A DNA stretch of 64,000 nt. It comes from Patescibacteria group bacterium. GTDB lineage: Bacteria > Patescibacteriota > Minisyncoccia > Phycocordibacterales > PALSA-1337. The translations under genes were made by a program, and so were the position numbers. Location of the stretch: NCBI GenBank assembly GCA_018971685.1, contig JAGXAG010000002.1, forward strand, positions 2,276 through 66,275. Direction: 5' to 3'. Within the stretch, counting starts at the first letter, position 1; every line of letters starts with the position of its first letter. Positions 3,715 to 60,264 of this stretch are shown piece by piece. The notes under the pieces are model-generated. The model was not told where the DNA came from. It worked only from the letters and a program-made list of their open reading frames with translations, and ran no database searches.

Positions 3715-4713
3715 ATGTCCCTATCCATCGGAATCGTCGGCCTGCCGAATGTGGGAAAATCCACATTGTTCAACGCGCTCACGAAAAAGACCGTGCCGGC
3801 GGAAAATTATCCGTTTTGCACGATCGACCCTTCGGTGGGAGTGGTGGCGGTGCCGGACGAAAGATTGAATAAACTTTCGGAATTTTCTAAATCGGCAAAG
3901 ACGGTGCCGGCGGCGGTTCAATTTACAGACATAGCGGGGCTGGTGAAGGGCGCCTCGGAAGGCGAGGGGCTTGGCAACCAATTCCTTTCTCATATCCGCG
4001 AAACGGACGCTATCGCCGAAGTGGTGAGGATTTTCGAAGACGATGATATCATTCATGTCAACAACAAAGTCGATCCGCTGAATGATATCGGCGTCATCAA
4101 CCTCGAATTGATCCTGGCGGATTTGCAGACGGTGACGAAGCGACAAGCGTCGATAGGCAAAGAAGTCAAAGCCGGCAAAAAGGAGGCAGTCATTGAAGCA
4201 AGTCTTCTGGAAAAGCTGGCTAAGGTCCTGAAAGGCGGTGAGCTGGCATCGGCGGTAAAAGTGGATGAGCAGGAAACGCCGATCCTGAAGAGGTTGTGCC
4301 TGATCAGCGCCAAGCCGATCTTGTATGTCCTGAACACTTCCGAAGCCGGCAAAAATCTCGATGAAATAGAGTCGAAAATTTCCGGACCTTTGGTCAAAGT
4401 CGATCCAATATTCGAGAAGGGATTGGGAGATCTTATCAGGAAAAGTTACGAAATCTTGAACTTGATCACCTTTTTCACCACCGGCGCGGACGAGACTCGA
4501 GGCTGGACGATCCGGCGCGGCTCGACCGCTCCCGAAGCCGGTGCCGCTATTCATGGCGATTTCAAGGACAAATTCATCAAAGCGGAGGTGATCGAGTGGG
4601 ACAAACTGTTATCCGCCGGATCATATGCGAATGCCCGCGAAAATGGCTTGTTGCGCACCGAAGGTAAAGAGTATTTGGTCAAAGACGGAGATGTGATAGA
4701 GTTTAAGGTCTAG
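3715..4713 (+). CDS. ychF: Ribosome-binding ATPase YchF (Obg-like GTPase family)
   Basis: P-loop IGIVGLPNVGKSTLFNALT. NKVD box. C-terminal TGS-like region. Start chosen at Met 8 (MSLSIGIVG). Confidence 0.9.
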   Translation: MSLSIGIVGLPNVGKSTLFNALTKKTVPAENYPFCTIDPSVGVVAVPDERLNKLSEFSKSAKTVPAAVQFTDIAGLVKGASEGEGLGNQFLSHIRETDAIAEVVRIFEDDDIIHVNNKVDPLNDIGVINLELILADLQTVTKRQASIGKEVKAGKKEAVIEASLLEKLAKVLKGGELASAVKVDEQETPILKRLCLISAKPILYVLNTSEAGKNLDEIESKISGPLVKVDPIFEKGLGDLIRKSYEILNLITFFTTGADETRGWTIRRGSTAPEAGAAIHGDFKDKFIKAEVIEWDKLLSAGSYANARENGLLRTEGKEYLVKDGDVIEFKV

Positions 4714-5320: not shown

Positions 5321-8224
5321 ATGATGATTTTCATGAAAAAAGAACAGAAATACGCACCCGCCAAGATAGAGAAAAAGTGGCAGAAAAAGTGGGCGGCGGC
5401 GAAAATCTATAAGACGAAAGAAGGCGGAAAGACCGGTAATAAAAGTTCACCGCAAGATAAATATTATGTGCTCGACATGTTCCCATACCCGTCCGGCGAA
5501 GGCTTGCATGTCGGCCACCCCAAGGGCTATATCGCCACCGATGTTGTTTCCCGAATGAAACGCATGCAGGGCAAGAATGTGTTGCACCCCATGGGTTTCG
5601 ACGCTTTCGGACTGCCGGCAGAAAATTACGCGCTCAAGATGAAGAAAAATCCGATGGACTTGACCGCCAAGAATGTGAAGCGGTTCAAAGATCAGCTGGA
5701 AATTCTCGGCTTCGATTATGATTGGTCGCGCGAAGTCAACACCACCGATCCGAAATATTACAAATGGACGCAATGGATATTCTTGCAACTTTTCAAGAAG
5801 GGCCTGGCTTACGAATCATTCGAGCCCATCAACTGGTGTCCTTCATGCAAAACCGGCCTTGCCAACGAAGACATCGAAAACGGCCGTTGCGAGCGCTGTG
5901 GCACACCGGTTGAGAAGAAGCCGATGCGTCAGTGGGTTTTGAAGATTACTGATTATGCGGAGAGGCTTCTGAATGATCTGGATGCAAAAAATAATGACGG
6001 CAAGCCGCTTCTCGATTGGCCGGAATCGATAAAAGAGGCGCAGAGGAATTGGATAGGGAGGAGCGAGGGAGCACTGATAAAGTTTCGATTCCAAGGTCGG
6101 ACCTTGGAAGTGGAAGTATTCACGACGCGGCCGGATACTTTGTTCGGCGTGACTTATTTGGTATTGGCGCCGGAGCACAAACTAGTCCAAGAATTATTGG
6201 CTGATGTGGAAAATCGCAAAGAGGTCGAGGAATATGTCTCAAAAGCGCGATTGGAGACGGAAATAGAGCGCACTGATGTCAAAAAAGAGAAAACGGGCGT
6301 GGAATTGAAAGGCATCAAGGCGATAAACCCGGCCAACAATGAAGAGGTGCCTGTATGGGTGGCCGACTATGTTCTGGCCGATTACGGCACAGGCGCCGTC
6401 ATGGCGGTGCCGGCGCACGATGAGCGCGATTGGGAGTTTGCGAAGAAATTTGATTTGCCTATAAAGGATGTTGTTAGGCATGTTTGGGGCAATAAATTAC
6501 CTAATGAAGAATTTAGAAAAAGTGTATGTGCAATAGTTAGGAATAAGAAAGACGGCAAAATATTATTATTAAAGTGGAAAAACGGTGAGAAATGGATTTC
6601 CCCGGTGATCGGGGGTGTTGAGGATAGAGAATCATATGAAGATGCTGCAGTACGAGAGGTCTTGGAAGAAACTGGTTACAAAGCAAAAATAGTTGAACCT
6701 ATAAGTTTTGAAATAGATTCTCATTTTTTCGCTACACATAAAGGTATTGCTAGGCATAGGACAATCAAACATTTCCTTCTGGAAACAAATGAAGATAGTC
6801 ATGTAGGTGTTTCTAAGAAAGAATCTGAAAAACATGAACTATTTTGGACCACTCTCGATGATGCAATAAGTTGTATAACTCACAGTGATAATAAAATAGG
6901 TCTACAGGGAATTAAATCTGGAAACTATTCCTATATTGGAGAAGGTGTTCTGGTTAATTCTGGTCAATTCAACGGAAAAAATTCAGAGGAAGTCAAAAAA
7001 GAAATCACGGACTTTGTTGGCGGGAAATGGGTGACGAAATACAAATTGCGAGACTGGGTATTCTCGCGGCAAAGGTATTGGGGCGAACCGATCCCGATCA
7101 TTCATTGCGGGAAGTGCGGCGTAGTGCCGGTGCCCGAGAAAGATCTGCCGGTCAAATTACCGAAAGTGAAGTCGTACGAGCCGACCGGGACCGGGGAATC
7201 ACCATTGGCGGCCATAAAGAATTGGGTGAATGTGAAGTGTTCGAAATGCAAAGGCCCGGCCAAAAGAGAGACAAATACCATGCCGCAATGGGCCGGTTCG
7301 TCTTGGTATTATTTGAGATACGAGGATCCCAAGAATGCCAAGAAATTGGTTGATCCGAATAAAGAGAAATACTGGTCGCCTGTTGATCTCTATGTCGGCG
7401 GCGCCGAACATGCCACGCGGCACCTAATTTACGCGCGTTTTTGGCACAAATTCTTATATGACATAGGCGTCGTTTCGGCGATCGAGCCGTTCAAGAAGCT
7501 CCAGAATGTGGGGCTCATTATGGGTGAAGATGGTAGAAAGATGTCCAAGCGGTTTGGCAATGTGGTCAATCCTGACGACATTGTGAATGCTTACGGCGCC
7601 GATACCATGCGCATTTACGAAATGTTCATGGGGCCCTTTGATCAACAGATTTCATGGAGCACTTCAAGCATGGTCGGTGCTCGCAGATTCATTGAAAGAG
7701 TATGGAAATTAAGAAAACACACGGCGAGCGAGGAGGGAGAGGCGCCGACCGGGCGCGTTGATAAAATCTTACATAAGACCATCAAAAAGGTTACGAAAGA
7801 TATCGATGACCTAAAATTCAACACCGCAGTAAGTTCACTCATGATTGCCGCCAACGAATTGGAAAAAGTTAAGTCAATAAGCCGCGAGCAGTTCGAAATA
7901 CTGTTGAAACTGCTGGCGCCGTTCATCCCACATGTTGCCGATGAATTGTGGACCGGTTTCGGCAACAAGAGATCAATCCATGTCTCGGGATGGCCGGTGT
8001 GCGACGAGAAGTTGTCGGCTGAGGAAAAAGTGACGATTGCCGTGCAAGTCAATGGCAAAACGCGCGGTTCATTCGAGGCACTTATTGATATTCCTGACGA
8101 TGAATTGAAAAATAAGGCTCTTAGTTTGCCGGAAATAAAAAAATGGATTGACGGTAAAGTTTTGAAGAAAACCATCGTCGTTAAAAACAAGTTGGTCAGT
8201 CTTGTGGCCTCTGATTTATCTTAA
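5321..8224 (+). CDS. leuS: Leucyl-tRNA synthetase carrying an inserted Nudix hydrolase domain (about aa 386-540)
   Basis: HIGH motif HVGHPKGY. KMSKS motif KMSKRFGN. CP1 editing-domain end-motif VPAHDERDWEFA. C-terminal anticodon-binding region. Between ...LPIKDVV and GEGVLVNSGQFNG lies about 155 aa with a perfect Nudix box GGVEDRESYEDAAVREVLEETGY. Confidence 0.95.
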   Translation: MMIFMKKEQKYAPAKIEKKWQKKWAAAKIYKTKEGGKTGNKSSPQDKYYVLDMFPYPSGEGLHVGHPKGYIATDVVSRMKRMQGKNVLHPMGFDAFGLPAENYALKMKKNPMDLTAKNVKRFKDQLEILGFDYDWSREVNTTDPKYYKWTQWIFLQLFKKGLAYESFEPINWCPSCKTGLANEDIENGRCERCGTPVEKKPMRQWVLKITDYAERLLNDLDAKNNDGKPLLDWPESIKEAQRNWIGRSEGALIKFRFQGRTLEVEVFTTRPDTLFGVTYLVLAPEHKLVQELLADVENRKEVEEYVSKARLETEIERTDVKKEKTGVELKGIKAINPANNEEVPVWVADYVLADYGTGAVMAVPAHDERDWEFAKKFDLPIKDVVRHVWGNKLPNEEFRKSVCAIVRNKKDGKILLLKWKNGEKWISPVIGGVEDRESYEDAAVREVLEETGYKAKIVEPISFEIDSHFFATHKGIARHRTIKHFLLETNEDSHVGVSKKESEKHELFWTTLDDAISCITHSDNKIGLQGIKSGNYSYIGEGVLVNSGQFNGKNSEEVKKEITDFVGGKWVTKYKLRDWVFSRQRYWGEPIPIIHCGKCGVVPVPEKDLPVKLPKVKSYEPTGTGESPLAAIKNWVNVKCSKCKGPAKRETNTMPQWAGSSWYYLRYEDPKNAKKLVDPNKEKYWSPVDLYVGGAEHATRHLIYARFWHKFLYDIGVVSAIEPFKKLQNVGLIMGEDGRKMSKRFGNVVNPDDIVNAYGADTMRIYEMFMGPFDQQISWSTSSMVGARRFIERVWKLRKHTASEEGEAPTGRVDKILHKTIKKVTKDIDDLKFNTAVSSLMIAANELEKVKSISREQFEILLKLLAPFIPHVADELWTGFGNKRSIHVSGWPVCDEKLSAEEKVTIAVQVNGKTRGSFEALIDIPDDELKNKALSLPEIKKWIDGKVLKKTIVVKNKLVSLVASDLS

Positions 8225-30932: not shown

Positions 30933-31157
30933 ATGGTAGTAAGAATGCGCGCCACGCGGTCGCACCGCGACAACAGGAGATCTCACCACGCTTTGGAAGC
31001 GGCGCGTTTTTCTAAGTGCCAGAATTGCGGCGCGGCGCGCAAGAGCCACACCGTCTGTATGAATTGCGGATGGTATAACGGTAGGAAGGTTATAGACCTT
31101 GCGGCCAAAGCCGCCAAAAAAGCCTCCAAAGCCAAAAAAGCCGAAAACGCCCGCTAA
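30933..31157 (+). CDS. rpmF: 50S ribosomal protein L32 (bL32)
   Basis: TRSHRDNRRSHHAL ... CQNCG ... SHTVCMNCGWYNGRKV matches the L32 zinc-ribbon pattern. C-terminal Lys/Ala-rich tail. Confidence 0.8.
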   Translation: MVVRMRATRSHRDNRRSHHALEAARFSKCQNCGAARKSHTVCMNCGWYNGRKVIDLAAKAAKKASKAKKAENAR

Positions 31158-31195
31158 TTTCGTTAACAAGATAATCAAGTTCGTTCTTTAATTCA

Positions 31196-32095
31196 ATGGC
31201 AAATCGCCATTTATCTAGATCAATCGCACTGCAATCTCTCTTCGAGTGGGATTTTCGCGGCTGCGATAAAGGCAGTATTTCAGGTATAGTGGCGCGCGAC
31301 ATGAAAGAATTCGCGCCCGGCATGGCTGACTCTTCATTCGTCGAAGAATTACTTAAGGGCATCGTTGCCAAACAAGCCAATCTCGACGATGTCATCGCCA
31401 AGGCCGCGCCGGAATGGCCGGTTGAGAAGATTTCTCCGGTGGACAGGAATGTTTTACGCATAGGATTGTACGAATTGCTTTTTGCTGATCGCGCCGAAGT
31501 GCCGGCCAAGGTCGCCATCAATGAGGCCATCGAACTGGCCAAAACTTTCGGCGGCGAAACAAGCGGCCGGTTCGTCAACGGCGTTTTGGGCGCTGTGTAC
31601 AAAGAGCTCGGCGAACCGGGCAAGGATGCCGTGCCTTCAAAAAAGAAAAAGGCCGAAGTGCCTTACGAGCAAATGCCCATACAGCATTTGGGCGGGGCGG
31701 TGATTTGCTCCCGCGACGGCAAAGATGCTTACATGGCGTTCGTGCACGACGCTTTCGGCCACTGGACATTGTCGAAAGGTAAAATTCCAGAAGGCACGGA
31801 TCCGAAGGATGGCACCGTCGCCAAGGTGAAAGAAGAGATCGGTCTGGAAGTGGCGATCAAGGCAGATCTCGGCCAGAATGAATACATCGCCAACGATCCT
31901 GAAATAGGCAAAATACGCAAGCAGGTGCATTATTATTTGGCGGAATCGCCGTTTGTCAAACTCAAATTGGCCAAAAAACCAGGCCTGAATGATGCCAAAT
32001 GGTTTAAGCTGGCTGATATTATGGACCTGAATTTTTACGATGACATTTTGCCGATTGTCACGAAAGCCGTCACTATTTTTAGCAAAAGCGAGTGA
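31196..32095 (+). CDS. nusB: NusB transcription antitermination factor fused to a C-terminal Nudix-like domain
   Basis: NusB core (RSIALQSLFEWDF...NVLRIGLYELLFADRAEVPAKVAINEAIELAKTFGGETSGRFVNGVLG) is about 140 aa. A Lys-rich linker follows, then a Nudix-fold-like module (LGGAVICSRDGKDAYMAFVHDAFGHWTLSKGKIPEGTDPKDGTVAKVKEEIGLEV...) whose Nudix box keeps the EE..GL but lacks the canonical E7/R15/E16. Confidence 0.8.
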   Translation: MANRHLSRSIALQSLFEWDFRGCDKGSISGIVARDMKEFAPGMADSSFVEELLKGIVAKQANLDDVIAKAAPEWPVEKISPVDRNVLRIGLYELLFADRAEVPAKVAINEAIELAKTFGGETSGRFVNGVLGAVYKELGEPGKDAVPSKKKKAEVPYEQMPIQHLGGAVICSRDGKDAYMAFVHDAFGHWTLSKGKIPEGTDPKDGTVAKVKEEIGLEVAIKADLGQNEYIANDPEIGKIRKQVHYYLAESPFVKLKLAKKPGLNDAKWFKLADIMDLNFYDDILPIVTKAVTIFSKSE

Positions 32096-32832
32096 TGGCA
32101 TGGACGCGGGCGATCGGCAACCAAATGACCAAAATGAAGACAGACTTCGAAAAATTCGCTGAACAGATAGGGGTCGAATTCGACGACATCGCTCTGTTGC
32201 GAGCCGCCTGCACCCACCGTTCGTATTTGAACGAGAATAAAAAATCCGGCACGGAGCATAACGAGCGCTTGGAATTCTTGGGTGATGCGGTGTTGGAATT
32301 GGTCGTCACCAGTTTCCTCTTCCGCAAATATCCCAAGAAAGCCGAAGGTGAACTGACCGCTTTCAGGTCGGCATTAGTCAACACCGTGAGTTTGACCAAA
32401 GTCGCACAATCGATCGGCCTTAACGATTTTATGCTCCTATCGCGCGGCGAAGCCAAAGACGGCGGTCGCGCCCGTTCCGTCATCCTGGCCAATGCGGTCG
32501 AGGCGGTCATCGGCGCCATTTACATGGATCGCGGATACAATGCCGCCGCCAATTTCATTTCCAACCACCTTTTGAATACGATCGACATCGAAGAAATCGT
32601 CAAGAACAAAAGTTGGATTGACGCCAAGAGCCGTTTTCAGGAAAGGGCGCAAGAGAAAACGGGAATCACGCCTTCTTACCGGACGCTAAAGGAAGAGGGT
32701 CCCGATCACGACAAAAAGTTTACGCTTGGGGTCTTTCTGGGCGATGTCCAGGTTGCTACCGGCGCCGGGCCGTCGAAACAAGAGGCCGAACAAAAAGCGG
32801 CAGAGAAAGCGCTTGACATTAAAGGGTGGTGA
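32092..32832 (+). CDS. rnc: Ribonuclease III
   Basis: RNase III signature ERLEFLGDAVLELVV. C-terminal dsRBD. Start overlaps the nusB stop (ATGA). Confidence 0.9.
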   Translation: MMAWTRAIGNQMTKMKTDFEKFAEQIGVEFDDIALLRAACTHRSYLNENKKSGTEHNERLEFLGDAVLELVVTSFLFRKYPKKAEGELTAFRSALVNTVSLTKVAQSIGLNDFMLLSRGEAKDGGRARSVILANAVEAVIGAIYMDRGYNAAANFISNHLLNTIDIEEIVKNKSWIDAKSRFQERAQEKTGITPSYRTLKEEGPDHDKKFTLGVFLGDVQVATGAGPSKQEAEQKAAEKALDIKGW

Positions 32833-32860
32833 CAAGGTCGGACCTCGAAAAGGAATGAAC

Positions 32861-35248
32861 ATGTATCTGAAATCACTCGAACTATCAGGCTTCAAATCAT
32901 TCGCCAAGAAATCGGCACTGTCTTTCAATTCTGCCATAACCGGCATAGTGGGCCCGAACGGCAGCGGCAAAAGTAATGTCGCAGAGGCTTTCAGATTTGT
33001 CCTTGGCGAGCAATCCATCAAGTCGCTTCGCGGCAAAAGAGGCGAAGACCTCATCTGGAACGGCGGCGGCGACAACGCTTCCGGCGGCGGCAGAGCCAAT
33101 CGCGCAGGGGTAAAATTGACCTTTGATAATTCAAGGCAGATGTTTCCTGCCATAGACTTTGACGAAGTAACCGTCGAAAGGGTAGTCCATCGCGACAATT
33201 CCAACGAATATTTACTGAACGGCAGCCAAGTCAGGCTGAAAGACATTGTCGAATTGTTAGCCGCGGCGCATATCGGCGCCACCGGACATCACATCATTTC
33301 CCAGGGCGAAGCCGACAGAATATTGTCCGCATCCATCCGCGAGCGCCGGGAGATGATCGAGGACGCGCTCGGCCTCAAGATCTACCAGTGGAAGAAGCTC
33401 GAAAGCGTCCGCAAGCTCGAAAGAACCGAGGAGAATATGAAACAAGTCGAGTCGCTCCGCCGGGAAATCGCGCCGCATCTCAAATTCTTGAAGAAGCAAG
33501 TCGAAAAAGTCGAAAAAGCCGAGCAGATGCGCGTCGAACTCGTCACACTGTACAAAGAATATTTTGCCGCCGAAGATCATTACATAAAAACCGAAAAAGA
33601 AAGATTAAGCCGTGAATTGGCCGCGCCCAAGACGGAATCGGCCGGCCTCGAACGGGATTTGGAGAAAGCCAAGGGCATATTGTCCGCGTCGGAAAACAAA
33701 GACCACAAGAGCGAAGAAGTCATTTCGATCGAGAATAGATTGGCGACTATTCGCCGTGAAGTCGATGCTGCCACCCGCGAGTTGGGGGTGATCGAAGGCG
33801 AGATAAGGGCTGACGAGAGAGTCATCGAAAAAGAGCGATCCAGGATGAAGGACGAGGAGGCGAGGATGGTCTATCTGAAAGATGTCGAGGAAGTTGTCAG
33901 GCGCATCGAAGGATTCAATATATTTGACGACGCTAAAAAGCTTTGGAGCGAAGTCGTGAATGTTCTTCGTGAATTTATCGGCAAGCACCATTCCGTCGCC
34001 GATTCGGCCATGATCGACGACGCCGAGAAGGAAATCGTCGGCTTGAAAAACAGCAAGAGCAGGTTGGAGAAGATGCTTGCAGAGCTAAATCGCGCCGAGA
34101 CTAAGCTGAACCGCGAATACGAAGAGCTCAAGCGCCAGATCGAAAAAGAAAAAGATACCAATCGCGACGCCGAGAAGGATGTTTTTCGGATCATCGCGCG
34201 CCAAAATGAAGTGCGCGGACTGATCTCCGCTTTGACGAATCAGCTGGATACTGTTTCGCGAGACGAAGAAGCGTTCAAACGGGAGCTTGGCGAAGCGGCG
34301 ATAATAGTCGGCAGGGAGGCGACGGAGTATTCGGACTTCGCCCCACCCGCCACGAAGGAATCCGATGGACGCCTCGGAGGCCGCGAAGGCGGCCGAGAGC
34401 CAGCCGCGCCTAGAGCAGGCGGCGACGCCGTGTCCCGAGGGTCCTTCGTGGCGGGTGTGGCGAAGTCCGACCGCGAGACCCAATCATTCCGACTTAAGCA
34501 AATCGAAAAGATCAAGATCCGTCTGGAAGACGCAGGCGGTTCTGGTGGCGCGGAAGTCATGAAGGAATACAGGGAGACTGAGGAGCGCAATACATTCCTG
34601 GGCAAAGAACTCGAAGATCTGGAAAAAGCCAAAGCCGAACTTTTGAAACTGATTGCTGAGCTCGATACGCGGATCGATTACGAATTCAAAAGCGGCATTA
34701 TGAAAATAAATGCCGAATTCCAGAAATTCTTTGCACTCATGTTCGGCGGCGGCAAAGCCGAACTGACCGTTATCAAAGAACCAAAGCGCCGGAAAAAGAG
34801 CGATGCCGAGGAATTAGCCGAAGTTTTGAGAAATCCGGAAGAGGCGGTTGACGGCGATCTGTCGGAACAGCCGGAAGAAGAGGCGGAAGGCCCCGAAGGC
34901 CTCGAAGTCACTGTTAGTTTGCCGCGGAAAAAAGTCAAAGGCCTGGTCATGCTTTCGGGTGGCGAGCGCGCGCTCACTTCTATTGCTCTCCTGTTTGCCG
35001 TCTCGCAAGTCAACCCGCCGCCGTTCATCATTCTGGACGAGACGGACGCGGCGCTCGATGAAGCCAACAGCCGCAAGTACGGCGACATGATCGAAGACTT
35101 GTCCAAGCGCTCCCAGCTCATCCTGATCACCCACAACCGCGAGACCATGTCCAGGGCCGGCGTGCTCTATGGCATCACCATGTCTTCCGACGGCGCTTCG
35201 CGTTTGCTTTCGATCGCGTTCGAGGAGGCCGTCAAGGTGGCGAAATAA
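32861..35248 (+). CDS. smc: Chromosome segregation protein SMC, shortened (about 795 aa; hinge region replaced by a low-complexity segment)
   Basis: N-terminal Walker A GPNGSGKSNV. Q-loop region HIISQGEADRIL. Long coiled-coil. C-terminal signature LSGGERALTSIALLFA. Walker B FIILDETDAALD. Start chosen at MYLKSLELSGFKSF (AAGGA RBS 6 nt upstream). Confidence 0.7.
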   Translation: MYLKSLELSGFKSFAKKSALSFNSAITGIVGPNGSGKSNVAEAFRFVLGEQSIKSLRGKRGEDLIWNGGGDNASGGGRANRAGVKLTFDNSRQMFPAIDFDEVTVERVVHRDNSNEYLLNGSQVRLKDIVELLAAAHIGATGHHIISQGEADRILSASIRERREMIEDALGLKIYQWKKLESVRKLERTEENMKQVESLRREIAPHLKFLKKQVEKVEKAEQMRVELVTLYKEYFAAEDHYIKTEKERLSRELAAPKTESAGLERDLEKAKGILSASENKDHKSEEVISIENRLATIRREVDAATRELGVIEGEIRADERVIEKERSRMKDEEARMVYLKDVEEVVRRIEGFNIFDDAKKLWSEVVNVLREFIGKHHSVADSAMIDDAEKEIVGLKNSKSRLEKMLAELNRAETKLNREYEELKRQIEKEKDTNRDAEKDVFRIIARQNEVRGLISALTNQLDTVSRDEEAFKRELGEAAIIVGREATEYSDFAPPATKESDGRLGGREGGREPAAPRAGGDAVSRGSFVAGVAKSDRETQSFRLKQIEKIKIRLEDAGGSGGAEVMKEYRETEERNTFLGKELEDLEKAKAELLKLIAELDTRIDYEFKSGIMKINAEFQKFFALMFGGGKAELTVIKEPKRRKKSDAEELAEVLRNPEEAVDGDLSEQPEEEAEGPEGLEVTVSLPRKKVKGLVMLSGGERALTSIALLFAVSQVNPPPFIILDETDAALDEANSRKYGDMIEDLSKRSQLILITHNRETMSRAGVLYGITMSSDGASRLLSIAFEEAVKVAK

Positions 35249-53669: not shown

Positions 53670-53753
53670 GCGCAGGTGGCAGAGTGGTCAATTGCAACTG
53701 GCTGTAAACCAGTCGCCCTATGGGCTACGGGGGTTCAAATCCCTCCCTGCGCA
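53670..53753 (+). tRNA. tRNA-Tyr (anticodon GTA), long variable arm
   Basis: Acceptor GCGCAGG/CCTGCGC. 3-bp D-stem. Anticodon stem ACTGG/CCAGT, loop CTGTAAA gives GTA. 16-nt variable arm. T-loop TTCAAAT. Confidence 0.8.
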
Positions 53754-57087: not shown

Positions 57088-57158
57088 GGGCGATTAGTTA
57101 AGTGGTATAACTGCGGTCTCCAAAACCGCTGTCCGAGGTTCGATTCCTCGATCGCCCG
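57088..57158 (+). tRNA. tRNA-Trp (anticodon CCA)
   Basis: Acceptor GGGCGAT/ATCGCCC. D-stem GTTA/TAAC. Anticodon stem GCGGT/ACCGC, loop CTCCAAA gives CCA. T-arm CGAGG-TTCGATT-CCTCG. Discriminator G. Confidence 0.8.
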
Positions 57159-60182: not shown

Positions 60183-60264
60183 TGCCGGGAGGGAGAATCG
60201 AACTCCCATGGATTGCTCCGTACGATTTTGAGTCGTATGCGTCTACCAATTCCGCCATCCCGGC
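60183..60264 (-). tRNA. tRNA-Leu (anticodon CAA), long variable arm
   Basis: The reverse complement reads GCCGGGA...TCCCGGC acceptor. Anticodon stem TACGA/TCGTA, loop CTCAAAA gives CAA. Extra arm. T-loop TTCGATT. Confidence 0.8.

Follow-up and report, generated by a model that had tools for sequence, protein, structure and literature searches.

What is a Nudix domain doing at the C-terminus of NusB, and is it still an enzyme there? This question is raised by a gene, nusB-nudix, located in a stretch of 64,000 nucleotides from a Patescibacteria group bacterium (assembly GCA_018971685.1, contig JAGXAG010000002.1, positions 2,276 to 66,275), the whole of which was analysed and is called the window below. 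Canonical NusB is a stand-alone protein of ~130-160 amino acids (aa), whereas here ~160 more residues, comprising a linker and a Nudix domain, follow the core. An earlier reading of the letters alone (the sequence-only reading) had described this architecture and suggested that the added domain binds a nucleotide rather than hydrolyses it. Our preferred explanation, to which we give a probability of roughly 45%, is that in the clade of the window the Nudix domain is a non-hydrolytic module, binding diadenosine polyphosphates (ApnA) or 5'-polyphosphates, that is brought by NusB to the ribosomal RNA (rRNA) antitermination complex. The gene and the parts of it that matter here are the following.

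31196..32095, + strand: nusB-nudix gene, a single uninterrupted open reading frame (ORF) of 299 codons plus a TGA stop, with both Pfam domains on one polypeptide
31196..31618, + strand: NusB domain, residues 1-141, all-helical (PF01029, TIGR01951, AlphaFold2 and Foldseek)
31619..31675, + strand: flexible linker, residues 142-160, GKDAVPSKKKKAEVPYEQM, Lys-rich, with predicted local distance difference test (pLDDT) values <50 at residues 142-152
31676..32092, + strand: Nudix-fold domain of the ApnA-hydrolase type, residues 161-299 (PF00293 and Foldseek)
31778..31846, + strand: variant Nudix box, residues 195-217, GKIPEGTDPKDGTVAKVKEEIGL, with E7 replaced by T201, R15 by A209 and E16 by K210
31760..31780, + strand: H189-W-T-L-S-K194-G195 motif with the phosphate-contacting His and Lys, equivalent by alignment to H37-W-T-P-P-K42-G43 of NUDT2
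31883..31885, + strand: codon of Y230, the loop-5 ('X-loop') Tyr of ApnA hydrolases, equivalent to NUDT2 Y82
31919..31921, + strand: codon of K242, a polyphosphate contact, equivalent to NUDT2 K89 and PfLys94
32036..32044, + strand: Y281-D-D283, the second adenine-stacking aromatic residue and the acceptor for adenine N6, equivalent to NUDT2 F128 and E130

The two halves had been taken for one gene, and no frameshift was found in the ORF. An identical protein (P0001) is present in NCBI under the name 'transcription antitermination factor NusB [Patescibacteria group bacterium]'. Pfam matched residues 7-136 to PF01029 (NusB, 120 bits), NCBIfam matched the protein to the nusB equivalog TIGR01951 (124.6 bits vs a cut-off of 88.35), and the corresponding part of an AlphaFold2 (AF2) model consists of seven helices with pLDDT >90. 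In a Foldseek search of PDB, this N-terminal half was superimposed on the NusB structures 1eyv, 3d3c, 3imq and 1tzt with template modelling (TM) scores of ~0.85, and phmmer (E 1e-19) aligned it with the E. coli NusB chains of complexes 5ms0, 6tqn and 6tqo, which represent lambda-N and rrn antitermination. The NusB signature (KVAINEAIELAK-FG---SG-FVNGVL) is present, and in the 64-kb window the gene occupies the nusB slot of the rpmF-nusB-rnc(-smc) gene order, as does the short nusB of non-fusion Patescibacteria. Judged by these matches and by gene order, the gene is the NusB orthologue of the organism. The NusB part also gave sub-threshold matches to models of RsmB. The latter (RsmB/Sun, an rRNA m5C methyltransferase) is the one well-known case of a NusB-fold domain placed N-terminal to an enzyme acting on rRNA, but its N-domain is a paralogue of NusB, not an orthologue, and is joined to a Rossmann methyltransferase instead of a Nudix domain.

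In the C-terminal half, PF00293 (NUDIX) was matched at residues 171-280 with 30.5 bits (gathering score 21.1, E 4e-7), and with 32.6 bits when the C-terminal 157 aa were searched alone. The best fold match in PDB was to the Ap4A hydrolase of Aquifex (3i7u, target-normalised TM 0.86), and other matches included Thermus Ap6A hydrolase Ndx1 (0.84), the Ap4A hydrolase of C. elegans (0.74), CT771 of Chlamydia (0.73) and, in M. tuberculosis Rv2985, a Nudix domain that carries the description 'Nudix diadenosine polyphosphatase'. A sequence search of PDB with the C-terminal part returned CT771, the Aquifex enzyme and Ndx1 as its top matches. The closest solved relatives (3i7u, 1vc8, 4ilq/4mpo, 1ktg, 9cxx and NUDT2) are all diadenosine-polyphosphate Nudix hydrolases, and Ap4A-type enzymes (3i7u, Ndx1, CT771, the C. 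elegans protein, NUDT2 and Rv2985) are the best matches by both sequence and fold. Pfam, AF2 and Foldseek therefore agree on the Nudix fold that had been proposed for the C-terminal ~150 aa, and the strings on which that proposal was based (HLGGAVI... and GHWTLSKGKIPEGTDPKDGTVAKVKEEIGLEV) are found in the translation. The GC content of the Nudix half (0.484, with 0.586 at third codon positions (GC3)) is likewise in line with the genome, as had been stated (0.487 for the window, and GC3 of 0.592 for the NusB half).

The Nudix box was aligned to the solved Ap4A hydrolases and to human NUDT2, and reads G195-KIPEG-T201-DPKDGTV-A209-K210-V-K-E213-E214-I-G216-L217. It departs from the consensus GX5EX7REUXEEXGU in having Thr for E7, Ala for R15 and Lys for E16, and it retains E19, E20 and G22; this agrees with the absence of E7, R15 and E16 reported in the sequence-only reading. 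The three missing residues are ones that build the metal and catalytic site. In terms of NUDT2, T201 corresponds to E49, A209 to R57 and K210 to E58, and the equivalents of E61 and E62 are retained. The position of K210 is the one mutated in PDB 4ijx (E58A), which we take, from general knowledge of Nudix catalysis, to be an inactivating substitution. Among 32 sequences forming a close clade, K210, E213, E214 and G216 are invariant, i.e. the box variant is fixed there.

The residues that line the nucleotide pocket of ApnA hydrolases were considered next to the box. In these enzymes the motif His and Lys and the loop-5 Tyr hold the P1 phosphate, the adenine is stacked between the loop-5 Tyr and a second Tyr/Phe (human F128), E130 apparently forms a hydrogen bond with the adenine amino group, and PfLys94 (human K89) contacts a sulphate in the P1 site (PMC4734340). 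ApnA hydrolases are classically recognised by the loop tyrosine (the specificity marker of Dunn et al.; PMC5389931, PMC2425470). The domain of the window shares with Ap4A hydrolases the [HY]W-x3-KG motif, the loop-5 Tyr, the second stacking aromatic residue, the Lys equivalent to K89 and an acidic N6 acceptor; unlike them, it is devoid of E7, R15 and E16 and is never free-standing in this lineage. W190 aligns with NUDT2 W38, and Y230 is placed 13 residues past the box (16-17 being usual), a spacing equal to that of Aquifex 3i7u. Comparison of 87 fusions in any box state revealed K194 in 86/87, Y230 in 83/87, Lys or Arg at position 242 in 83/87, and, among the ungapped sequences, Y281 in 85/85 and Asp, Glu or Asn at position 283 in 85/85. 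Pocket residues are thus 94-100% conserved, whether the box is intact or not, whereas constraint is relaxed at E16, R15, E19 and E7. W190 and K194 are essentially invariant (H189 varies between His, Tyr, Lys and Arg), E229 and D266 are conserved, and the positions near-invariant in canonical and degenerate fusions alike are D185, F187, W190, T191, K194, G195, E214, G216, Y230, Y246, W269, F270 and Y281. As seen in these alignments, the nucleotide pocket is preserved while the metal-binding and catalytic positions drift. Because the pocket residues are kept and E7, R15 and E16 are lost, we read the domain as one that would bind without hydrolysis, and the mapping to NUDT2 likewise favours the earlier suggestion to this effect. 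The ligand class, the loss of hydrolysis and any effect on antitermination are inferences.

At least 120 clusters with this architecture were retrieved from a set of 5.8 billion protein clusters. All 120 listed clusters are ~300 aa long, contain both Pfam domains and are 76-83% identical to the query, and the organism names, where given, are all of the Patescibacteria group (Paceibacterota, Taylorbacteria and Pacebacteria). A scan of GTDB species representatives gave >597 relatives, of which the best 80 loci were analysed. The full fusion was found in 50 of these 80, always within rpmF-nusB-rnc-smc (the record titles include Kaiser-, Zambryski-, Nomura-, Niyogi-, Ryan- and Komeilibacteria, and Paceibacterota), and ~28 encode a short NusB with only 2-45 residues past the core (Moran-, Azam-, Yanofsky-, Staskawicz- and Wildermuthbacteria among the titles). 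No separate Nudix gene was found within ±4 kb of the short nusB of these sister lineages (~28 loci). Since the operon order is the same in fusion and non-fusion groups, the Nudix domain appears to have been added to the C-terminus of NusB inside a stable operon; by its distribution in these loci, it is a gain of one large sub-radiation of Parcubacteria/Paceibacteria. The earlier description of an old and fixed fusion can thus be extended to the lineage as a whole, as judged from the listed clusters and best GTDB loci. A close unfused ancestral form was also sought, and was rejected for the two nearest 'stand-alone' cases, both of which are artefacts. One of them (L083) comes from a contig truncated by a Nextera adaptor, and in the other (L082, positions 542-1459, GCA_013565675.1, JACCDV010735530.1) the two halves lie in the same frame, separated by a single TAA at the codon of the conserved Tyr135, and were called as two genes. 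This TAA could be a sequencing error, a pseudogene mutation or a site of stop-codon read-through.

An exhaustive HMMER scan with the C-terminal 157 aa against 1.84 billion representatives found only 479 proteins at E<=1e-3, and by this measure the domain is a small, divergent Nudix subfamily. The best 150 representatives comprise 37 full fusions, 21 fusion fragments, 24 seemingly stand-alone proteins and a remainder consisting mostly of fragments at contig ends. The genuine stand-alone relatives are 27-35% identical and mostly have a canonical box, with one cluster coming from Bacillota. P0174, which is among the closest of them and has a canonical box, is encoded at positions 4001-4453 of a Logan contig (SRR22388351, locus L081), where the neighbours are a DNA-methylase gene and genes with weak or faint Pfam matches to phage integrase and Phage_rep_O; this context resembles a mobile element or phage and is a possible source of the Nudix module. 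Other architectures of this Nudix subfamily are rare, each with a single representative that is perhaps chimeric (P0213, P0204, P0153, P0252 and P0135). They are (i) a 577-aa protein with a weak match to a cold-shock domain (CSD) before NusB-Nudix, (ii) sigma70-region4 with the C-terminal helix-turn-helix (HTH) of DnaA and a Nudix domain, (iii) an EndoV fragment with a Nudix domain, (iv) tandem Nudix domains and (v) NusB-Nudix with a weak Rho_N-like tail.

The state of the box varies within the fusions. The pattern G..E..RE..EE.G occurs in fully canonical form in 15 of the 50 GTDB fusion species, and ~23 of them retain RE..EE; the RE..EE core was counted in 21/49 fusion species and 28/87 fusion sequences (about a third to 40%), and 59/87 do not retain it. 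In these 59 degenerate fusions E16 is replaced by Lys (21), Val (11), Ile (8), Ala (7) and others, while R15 persists in 66%, and E19 and E7 in 63% each. When the NusB domains were placed in a neighbour-joining tree, canonical species proved to be intermixed with degenerate ones among close relatives. By Fitch parsimony, the 49 species need no fewer than 11 changes of state (bootstrap 11-16, label-shuffled mean 16.1), an exact count that is soft because the tree is built on ~140 residues and is weakly resolved. It is nevertheless clear that the box was lost many times independently; the degenerate box is not a property of the fusion as such, and the window clade is one of many independent losses. 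This clade (the window and L001-L004) uniformly shows G-[TVI]-[AN]-K-E-E-G and groups beside a canonical pair (L010/L012). Mean pairwise identity in the 32-sequence close clade is 0.802 for NusB, 0.702 for the linker and 0.806 for Nudix, and comparison of the window codons with those of L001-L004 gave a proportion of nonsynonymous differences (pN) of 0.11-0.19 in both halves, with that of synonymous differences (pS) saturated at 0.70-0.94. Purifying selection on the degenerate Nudix domain equals that on NusB in strength.

The AF2 model, built from a 49-sequence alignment, has a mean pLDDT of 91.7 and consists of a helical N-terminal domain, a disordered segment (residues 142-152) and a beta-rich C-terminal domain, with a predicted TM (pTM) score of 0.53. 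As modelled, these are two independently folded domains whose relative orientation is not fixed. The linker has a median length of 27 aa in 49 fusion species; its exit is a conserved GEPGK, and its centre is rich in Lys. Pfam and AF2 together bear out the arrangement described earlier, i.e. a NusB core, a Lys-rich linker and a Nudix C-terminus on one polypeptide. In Foldseek the whole two-domain model was also aligned with Dcp2 (6am0, 5n2v, 5j3t and 5kq4) over ~260 columns, with TM scores of 0.32-0.34 and a root-mean-square deviation >10 A. Dcp2, the mRNA-decapping enzyme, combines a helical regulatory domain, a hinge and a Nudix domain. Homology of the helical domains was rejected; the arrangement is a generic helical-plus-Nudix one, an architectural analogy with a low TM score.

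How could such a module act? NusB and NusE bind boxA in the rRNA leader and assemble the antitermination complex, and the leader-spacer duplex is the site of RNase III (PMC6614801). With NusB on boxA together with NusE and the elongating RNA polymerase, the tether would deliver the Nudix domain to the nascent rRNA leader. There the domain could report or capture its ligand, upstream of RNase III processing. The ligand would be an adenine nucleoside polyphosphate, which may be free ApnA, an ATP-like nucleotide or the (N)ppp(A)/Np4A 5' end of a transcript. Among the ligands suggested in the sequence-only reading, ApnA and adenine polyphosphates are consistent with the closest solved relatives and the conserved pocket, and nothing points to (p)ppGpp or NAD caps. 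A general binding of RNA backbone is disfavoured, since the domain is acidic (median net charge of -7 across fusions, -1 in the window protein). In a more ambitious version, which we think unlikely, the domain would serve the rRNA antitermination complex as a reader of alarmones or of the chemistry of 5' ends, and in the relatives with a canonical box it would be an eraser. The ligand of such a reader would be Ap4A/ApnA, or the 5' end of the nascent rRNA leader with its pppA or Np4A cap. Binding would either keep the leader at RNA polymerase or adjust NusB-dependent antitermination and processing by RNase III to the level of stress nucleotides.

Several observations weigh against binding without hydrolysis. 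E213 and E214 (E19 and E20) remain in place, which makes residual or variant catalysis possible. A third to 40% of the fusions are canonical, so the ancestral and still common function may be enzymatic, and the role of the domain in the window clade may differ from it. The acidic domain leaves protein-protein roles open. The AF2 model predicts no fixed interface between NusB and Nudix (pTM 0.53, disordered linker) and gives no structural hint of allosteric coupling, so that the earlier idea of sensing wired directly into the machinery goes further than the model does. The NUDT2 sequence used for the mapping was cross-checked by its residue numbers, with K42, E58, Y82, K89, F128 and E130 matching the numbers in PMC4734340 and the title of 4ijx.

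The first two of these points lead to the explanation that the domain is still an enzyme, namely a NusB-tethered ApnA hydrolase or an RppH-like RNA 5'-pyrophosphohydrolase (decapping enzyme). Its variant active site would employ E213/E214, other acids (E229, D266) and perhaps K210 replacing a metal, and its substrate would be the 5' end of the boxA transcript or local Ap4A. It fits this explanation that E19, E20 and G22 are invariant in the clade, that E229 and D266 are conserved and that the fusions with a fully canonical core are probably active. ApnA hydrolases and RppH are moreover of common origin, ApnA hydrolases may have RNA pyrophosphohydrolase activity, and active Nudix enzymes with an altered box are known, e.g. 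GDP-mannose hydrolases with RLx2AE (PMC5389931). However, R15 and E7, which brace the loop-helix-loop, are gone, the catalytic positions are relaxed family-wide and the pocket positions are not, and the repeated flips of box state (at least 11 among 49 species) are unlike a conserved alternative mechanism. E16 is, in addition, the position of the E58A substitution presumed above to inactivate NUDT2. Taken together, we consider a variant enzyme improbable. In another explanation the Nudix fold would be a ligand-independent scaffold, i.e. a protein-protein adaptor in the rRNA antitermination complex whose partners might be NusA, NusE, S4, RNA polymerase or a second copy of itself (dimer), in parallel with SuhB, whose catalysis is irrelevant in the E. 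coli complex. The repeated erosion of catalytic residues in a strongly constrained fold, an acidic surface suited to basic partners, a clade-specific set of invariant surface residues and the precedent of SuhB, an enzyme fold in the E. coli complex, all agree with a scaffold. Yet the most conserved residues across the fusions are the adenine-stacking and phosphate-binding ones, which would serve no purpose in a pure scaffold, and an interface with NusB itself is not predicted in the model; we find a pure scaffold doubtful.

Patescibacterial genomes are compact, and gene fusions may be commoner there. In a further explanation the module would be an uncoupled passenger, that is a housekeeping Ap4A hydrolase gene that came to lie beside nusB, was fused to it during genome streamlining and is in the window clade a slowly dying relic, each half functioning on its own. 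The flexible linker, the lack of a predicted inter-domain contact and the canonical box of many fusions agree with such a history, but the degenerate domain is as conserved as NusB and its pN is well below its pS, so that it is not a relic. The subfamily is also almost confined to the fusion (58 of the 150 best representatives carry NusB sequence, and most others are fragments), the two close 'stand-alone' cases are artefacts, and no unfused copy lies beside the short nusB of the sister lineages; we therefore rate a passenger as very unlikely. That the fusion itself is an artefact (mis-assembly, a frameshift or a chance Nudix-like pattern) has in its favour only L082, with its halves called as separate genes, and these halves are in one frame. 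The single ORF in the window, the same architecture in the 120 listed clusters and 50 GTDB species loci, and the concurrence of Pfam, structure prediction and fold search refute this explanation, to which we attach practically no weight.

If the domain is, as we favour, a binding module without hydrolytic activity, it has counterparts among known proteins. By its lost box residues and its fold and pocket kept under purifying selection, it would fit the class of non-catalytic Nudix domains, which is a functional class and not a clade. The closest functional analogy is CFIm25 (NUDT21), a Nudix fold in an RNA-synthesis/processing machine with the box RLx2EI (PMC5389931), which is devoid of two box glutamates, binds Ap4A (dissociation constant of 2.4 uM) and ATP without hydrolysis, and belongs to an RNA-processing complex (PMC2425470). 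It differs from the window protein in being eukaryotic, dimeric and unfused, in stacking adenine with Phe103 upstream of the box and in binding UGUA RNA, and it is no close homologue. Other non-enzymatic Nudix domains are those of NrtR, TRPM2 (NUDT9-H) and DBC1, which follow the same design of a catalysis-less Nudix on a regulator as a nucleotide-binding module (PMC5389931), but their ligands are related to ADP-ribose and NAD, they belong to another Nudix branch, and the effectors are a winged helix-turn-helix DNA-binding domain or an ion channel. The Nudix domain of an NrtR (3gz8) was among the Foldseek matches. With regard to the complex itself, SuhB is an enzyme fold present in the NusB/boxA-dependent rrn complex of E. 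coli, its recruitment being boxA- and NusB-dependent (PMC6614801). E. coli does not require its inositol monophosphatase activity, and gene regulation was proposed as its primary function (PMC6614797). SuhB differs from the module described here in its inositol monophosphatase fold, in being a separate polypeptide and in keeping its catalytic residues. A literature search found no description of a NusB-Nudix fusion, and a 2017 survey of the Nudix clan has no mention of NusB. The architecture is already visible in public databases, where the combination of Pfam domains has been precomputed and the proteins bear no other name than NusB, and the fusion combines known kinds (NusB and non-catalytic Nudix readers) and is not a new category.

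The neighbourhood of the gene and the other features of the window referred to below are as follows.

30933..31157, + strand: rpmF (ribosomal protein L32), 5' of nusB in the conserved operon, PF01783 63.8 bits
32092..32832, + strand: rnc (RNase III), with Ribonuclease III and dsrm domains, its start overlapping the nusB-nudix stop
5321..8224, + strand: LeuRS gene, with a Nudix insert at residues 398-515 (~6512-6865) after the editing domain, PF00293 61 bits
107-177, 220-293, 53670-53753 and 57088-57158, + strand, and 60183-60264, - strand: tRNA genes (Rfam)

The order rpmF-nusB-rnc-smc (30933-35248 in the window) is kept in many lineages of Patescibacteria, whether or not they have the fusion; rpmF is upstream of nusB in nearly all of the 80 related loci, and rnc is downstream in fusion and non-fusion genomes alike. 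The TGA of nusB-nudix (32093-32095) overlaps the start of rnc (GTG at 32092 or ATG at 32095, as TGATG), which suggests translational coupling. A scan for promoters and terminators gave nothing above the shuffled expectation, with no + strand terminator beyond chance between nusB-nudix and rnc. Two reverse-strand ORFs over the region (31637..32101, 154 aa, and 31090..31623, 177 aa) were dismissed, as the + frame is conserved, with pN well below pS. The longest SMC ORF (32726-35248, + strand) has a TTG start ~100 nt inside the 3' end of rnc, and an SMC-like N-terminus (MYLKSLELSGFKSF) occurs ~45 codons past this TTG, the true smc start being probably downstream. At the gathering threshold, Rfam detected only the five tRNAs, with no rRNA operon, leader or boxA context within the 64-kb window.

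The window contains a second Nudix module, inserted in LeuRS. Its box is fully canonical (GGVEDRESYEDAAVREVLEETGY), its GC content is 0.356 and its GC3 0.246, vs a GC3 of 0.564 for the rest of leuS, which suggests that the insert is recent or foreign. Its best solved relative is the Aquifex Ap4A hydrolase (E 9e-9), followed by DIPP enzymes. BLASTP comparison of the insert with the NusB-attached Nudix domain detected no similarity (E 22), and paralogy of the two modules was rejected on this ground and on the canonical box and low GC3 of the insert. The two were acquired independently and at different times, though both come from one broad branch of the Nudix clan. The observation in the sequence-only reading that two core information-processing proteins in the window carry Nudix modules is thus correct, and both modules are of the ApnA type; they are not related acquisitions, as BLASTP and GC3 indicate. 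That the shared ApnA-type theme reflects 'alarmone sensing' is a hypothesis.

NusB is usually seen as a minimal, single-domain protein, and its lineage-wide covalent partner shows that a major uncultivated bacterial radiation has an rRNA antitermination machinery of different construction. The conserved pocket, combined with the repeated loss of catalysis, is a testable handle on two questions, i.e. the roles of dinucleoside polyphosphates and non-canonical 5' ends in bacteria and the regulation of ribosome synthesis in the reduced genomes of Patescibacteria. Active-looking and inactive-looking orthologues form a natural series for studying the passage from an enzyme to a binding module, and this series is tractable with recombinant proteins though the organisms are uncultivated. 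If the domain does prove to be a reader, it would be a bacterial counterpart of CFIm25 and would provide a direct physical link from dinucleoside-polyphosphate signalling to ribosome synthesis in Patescibacteria.

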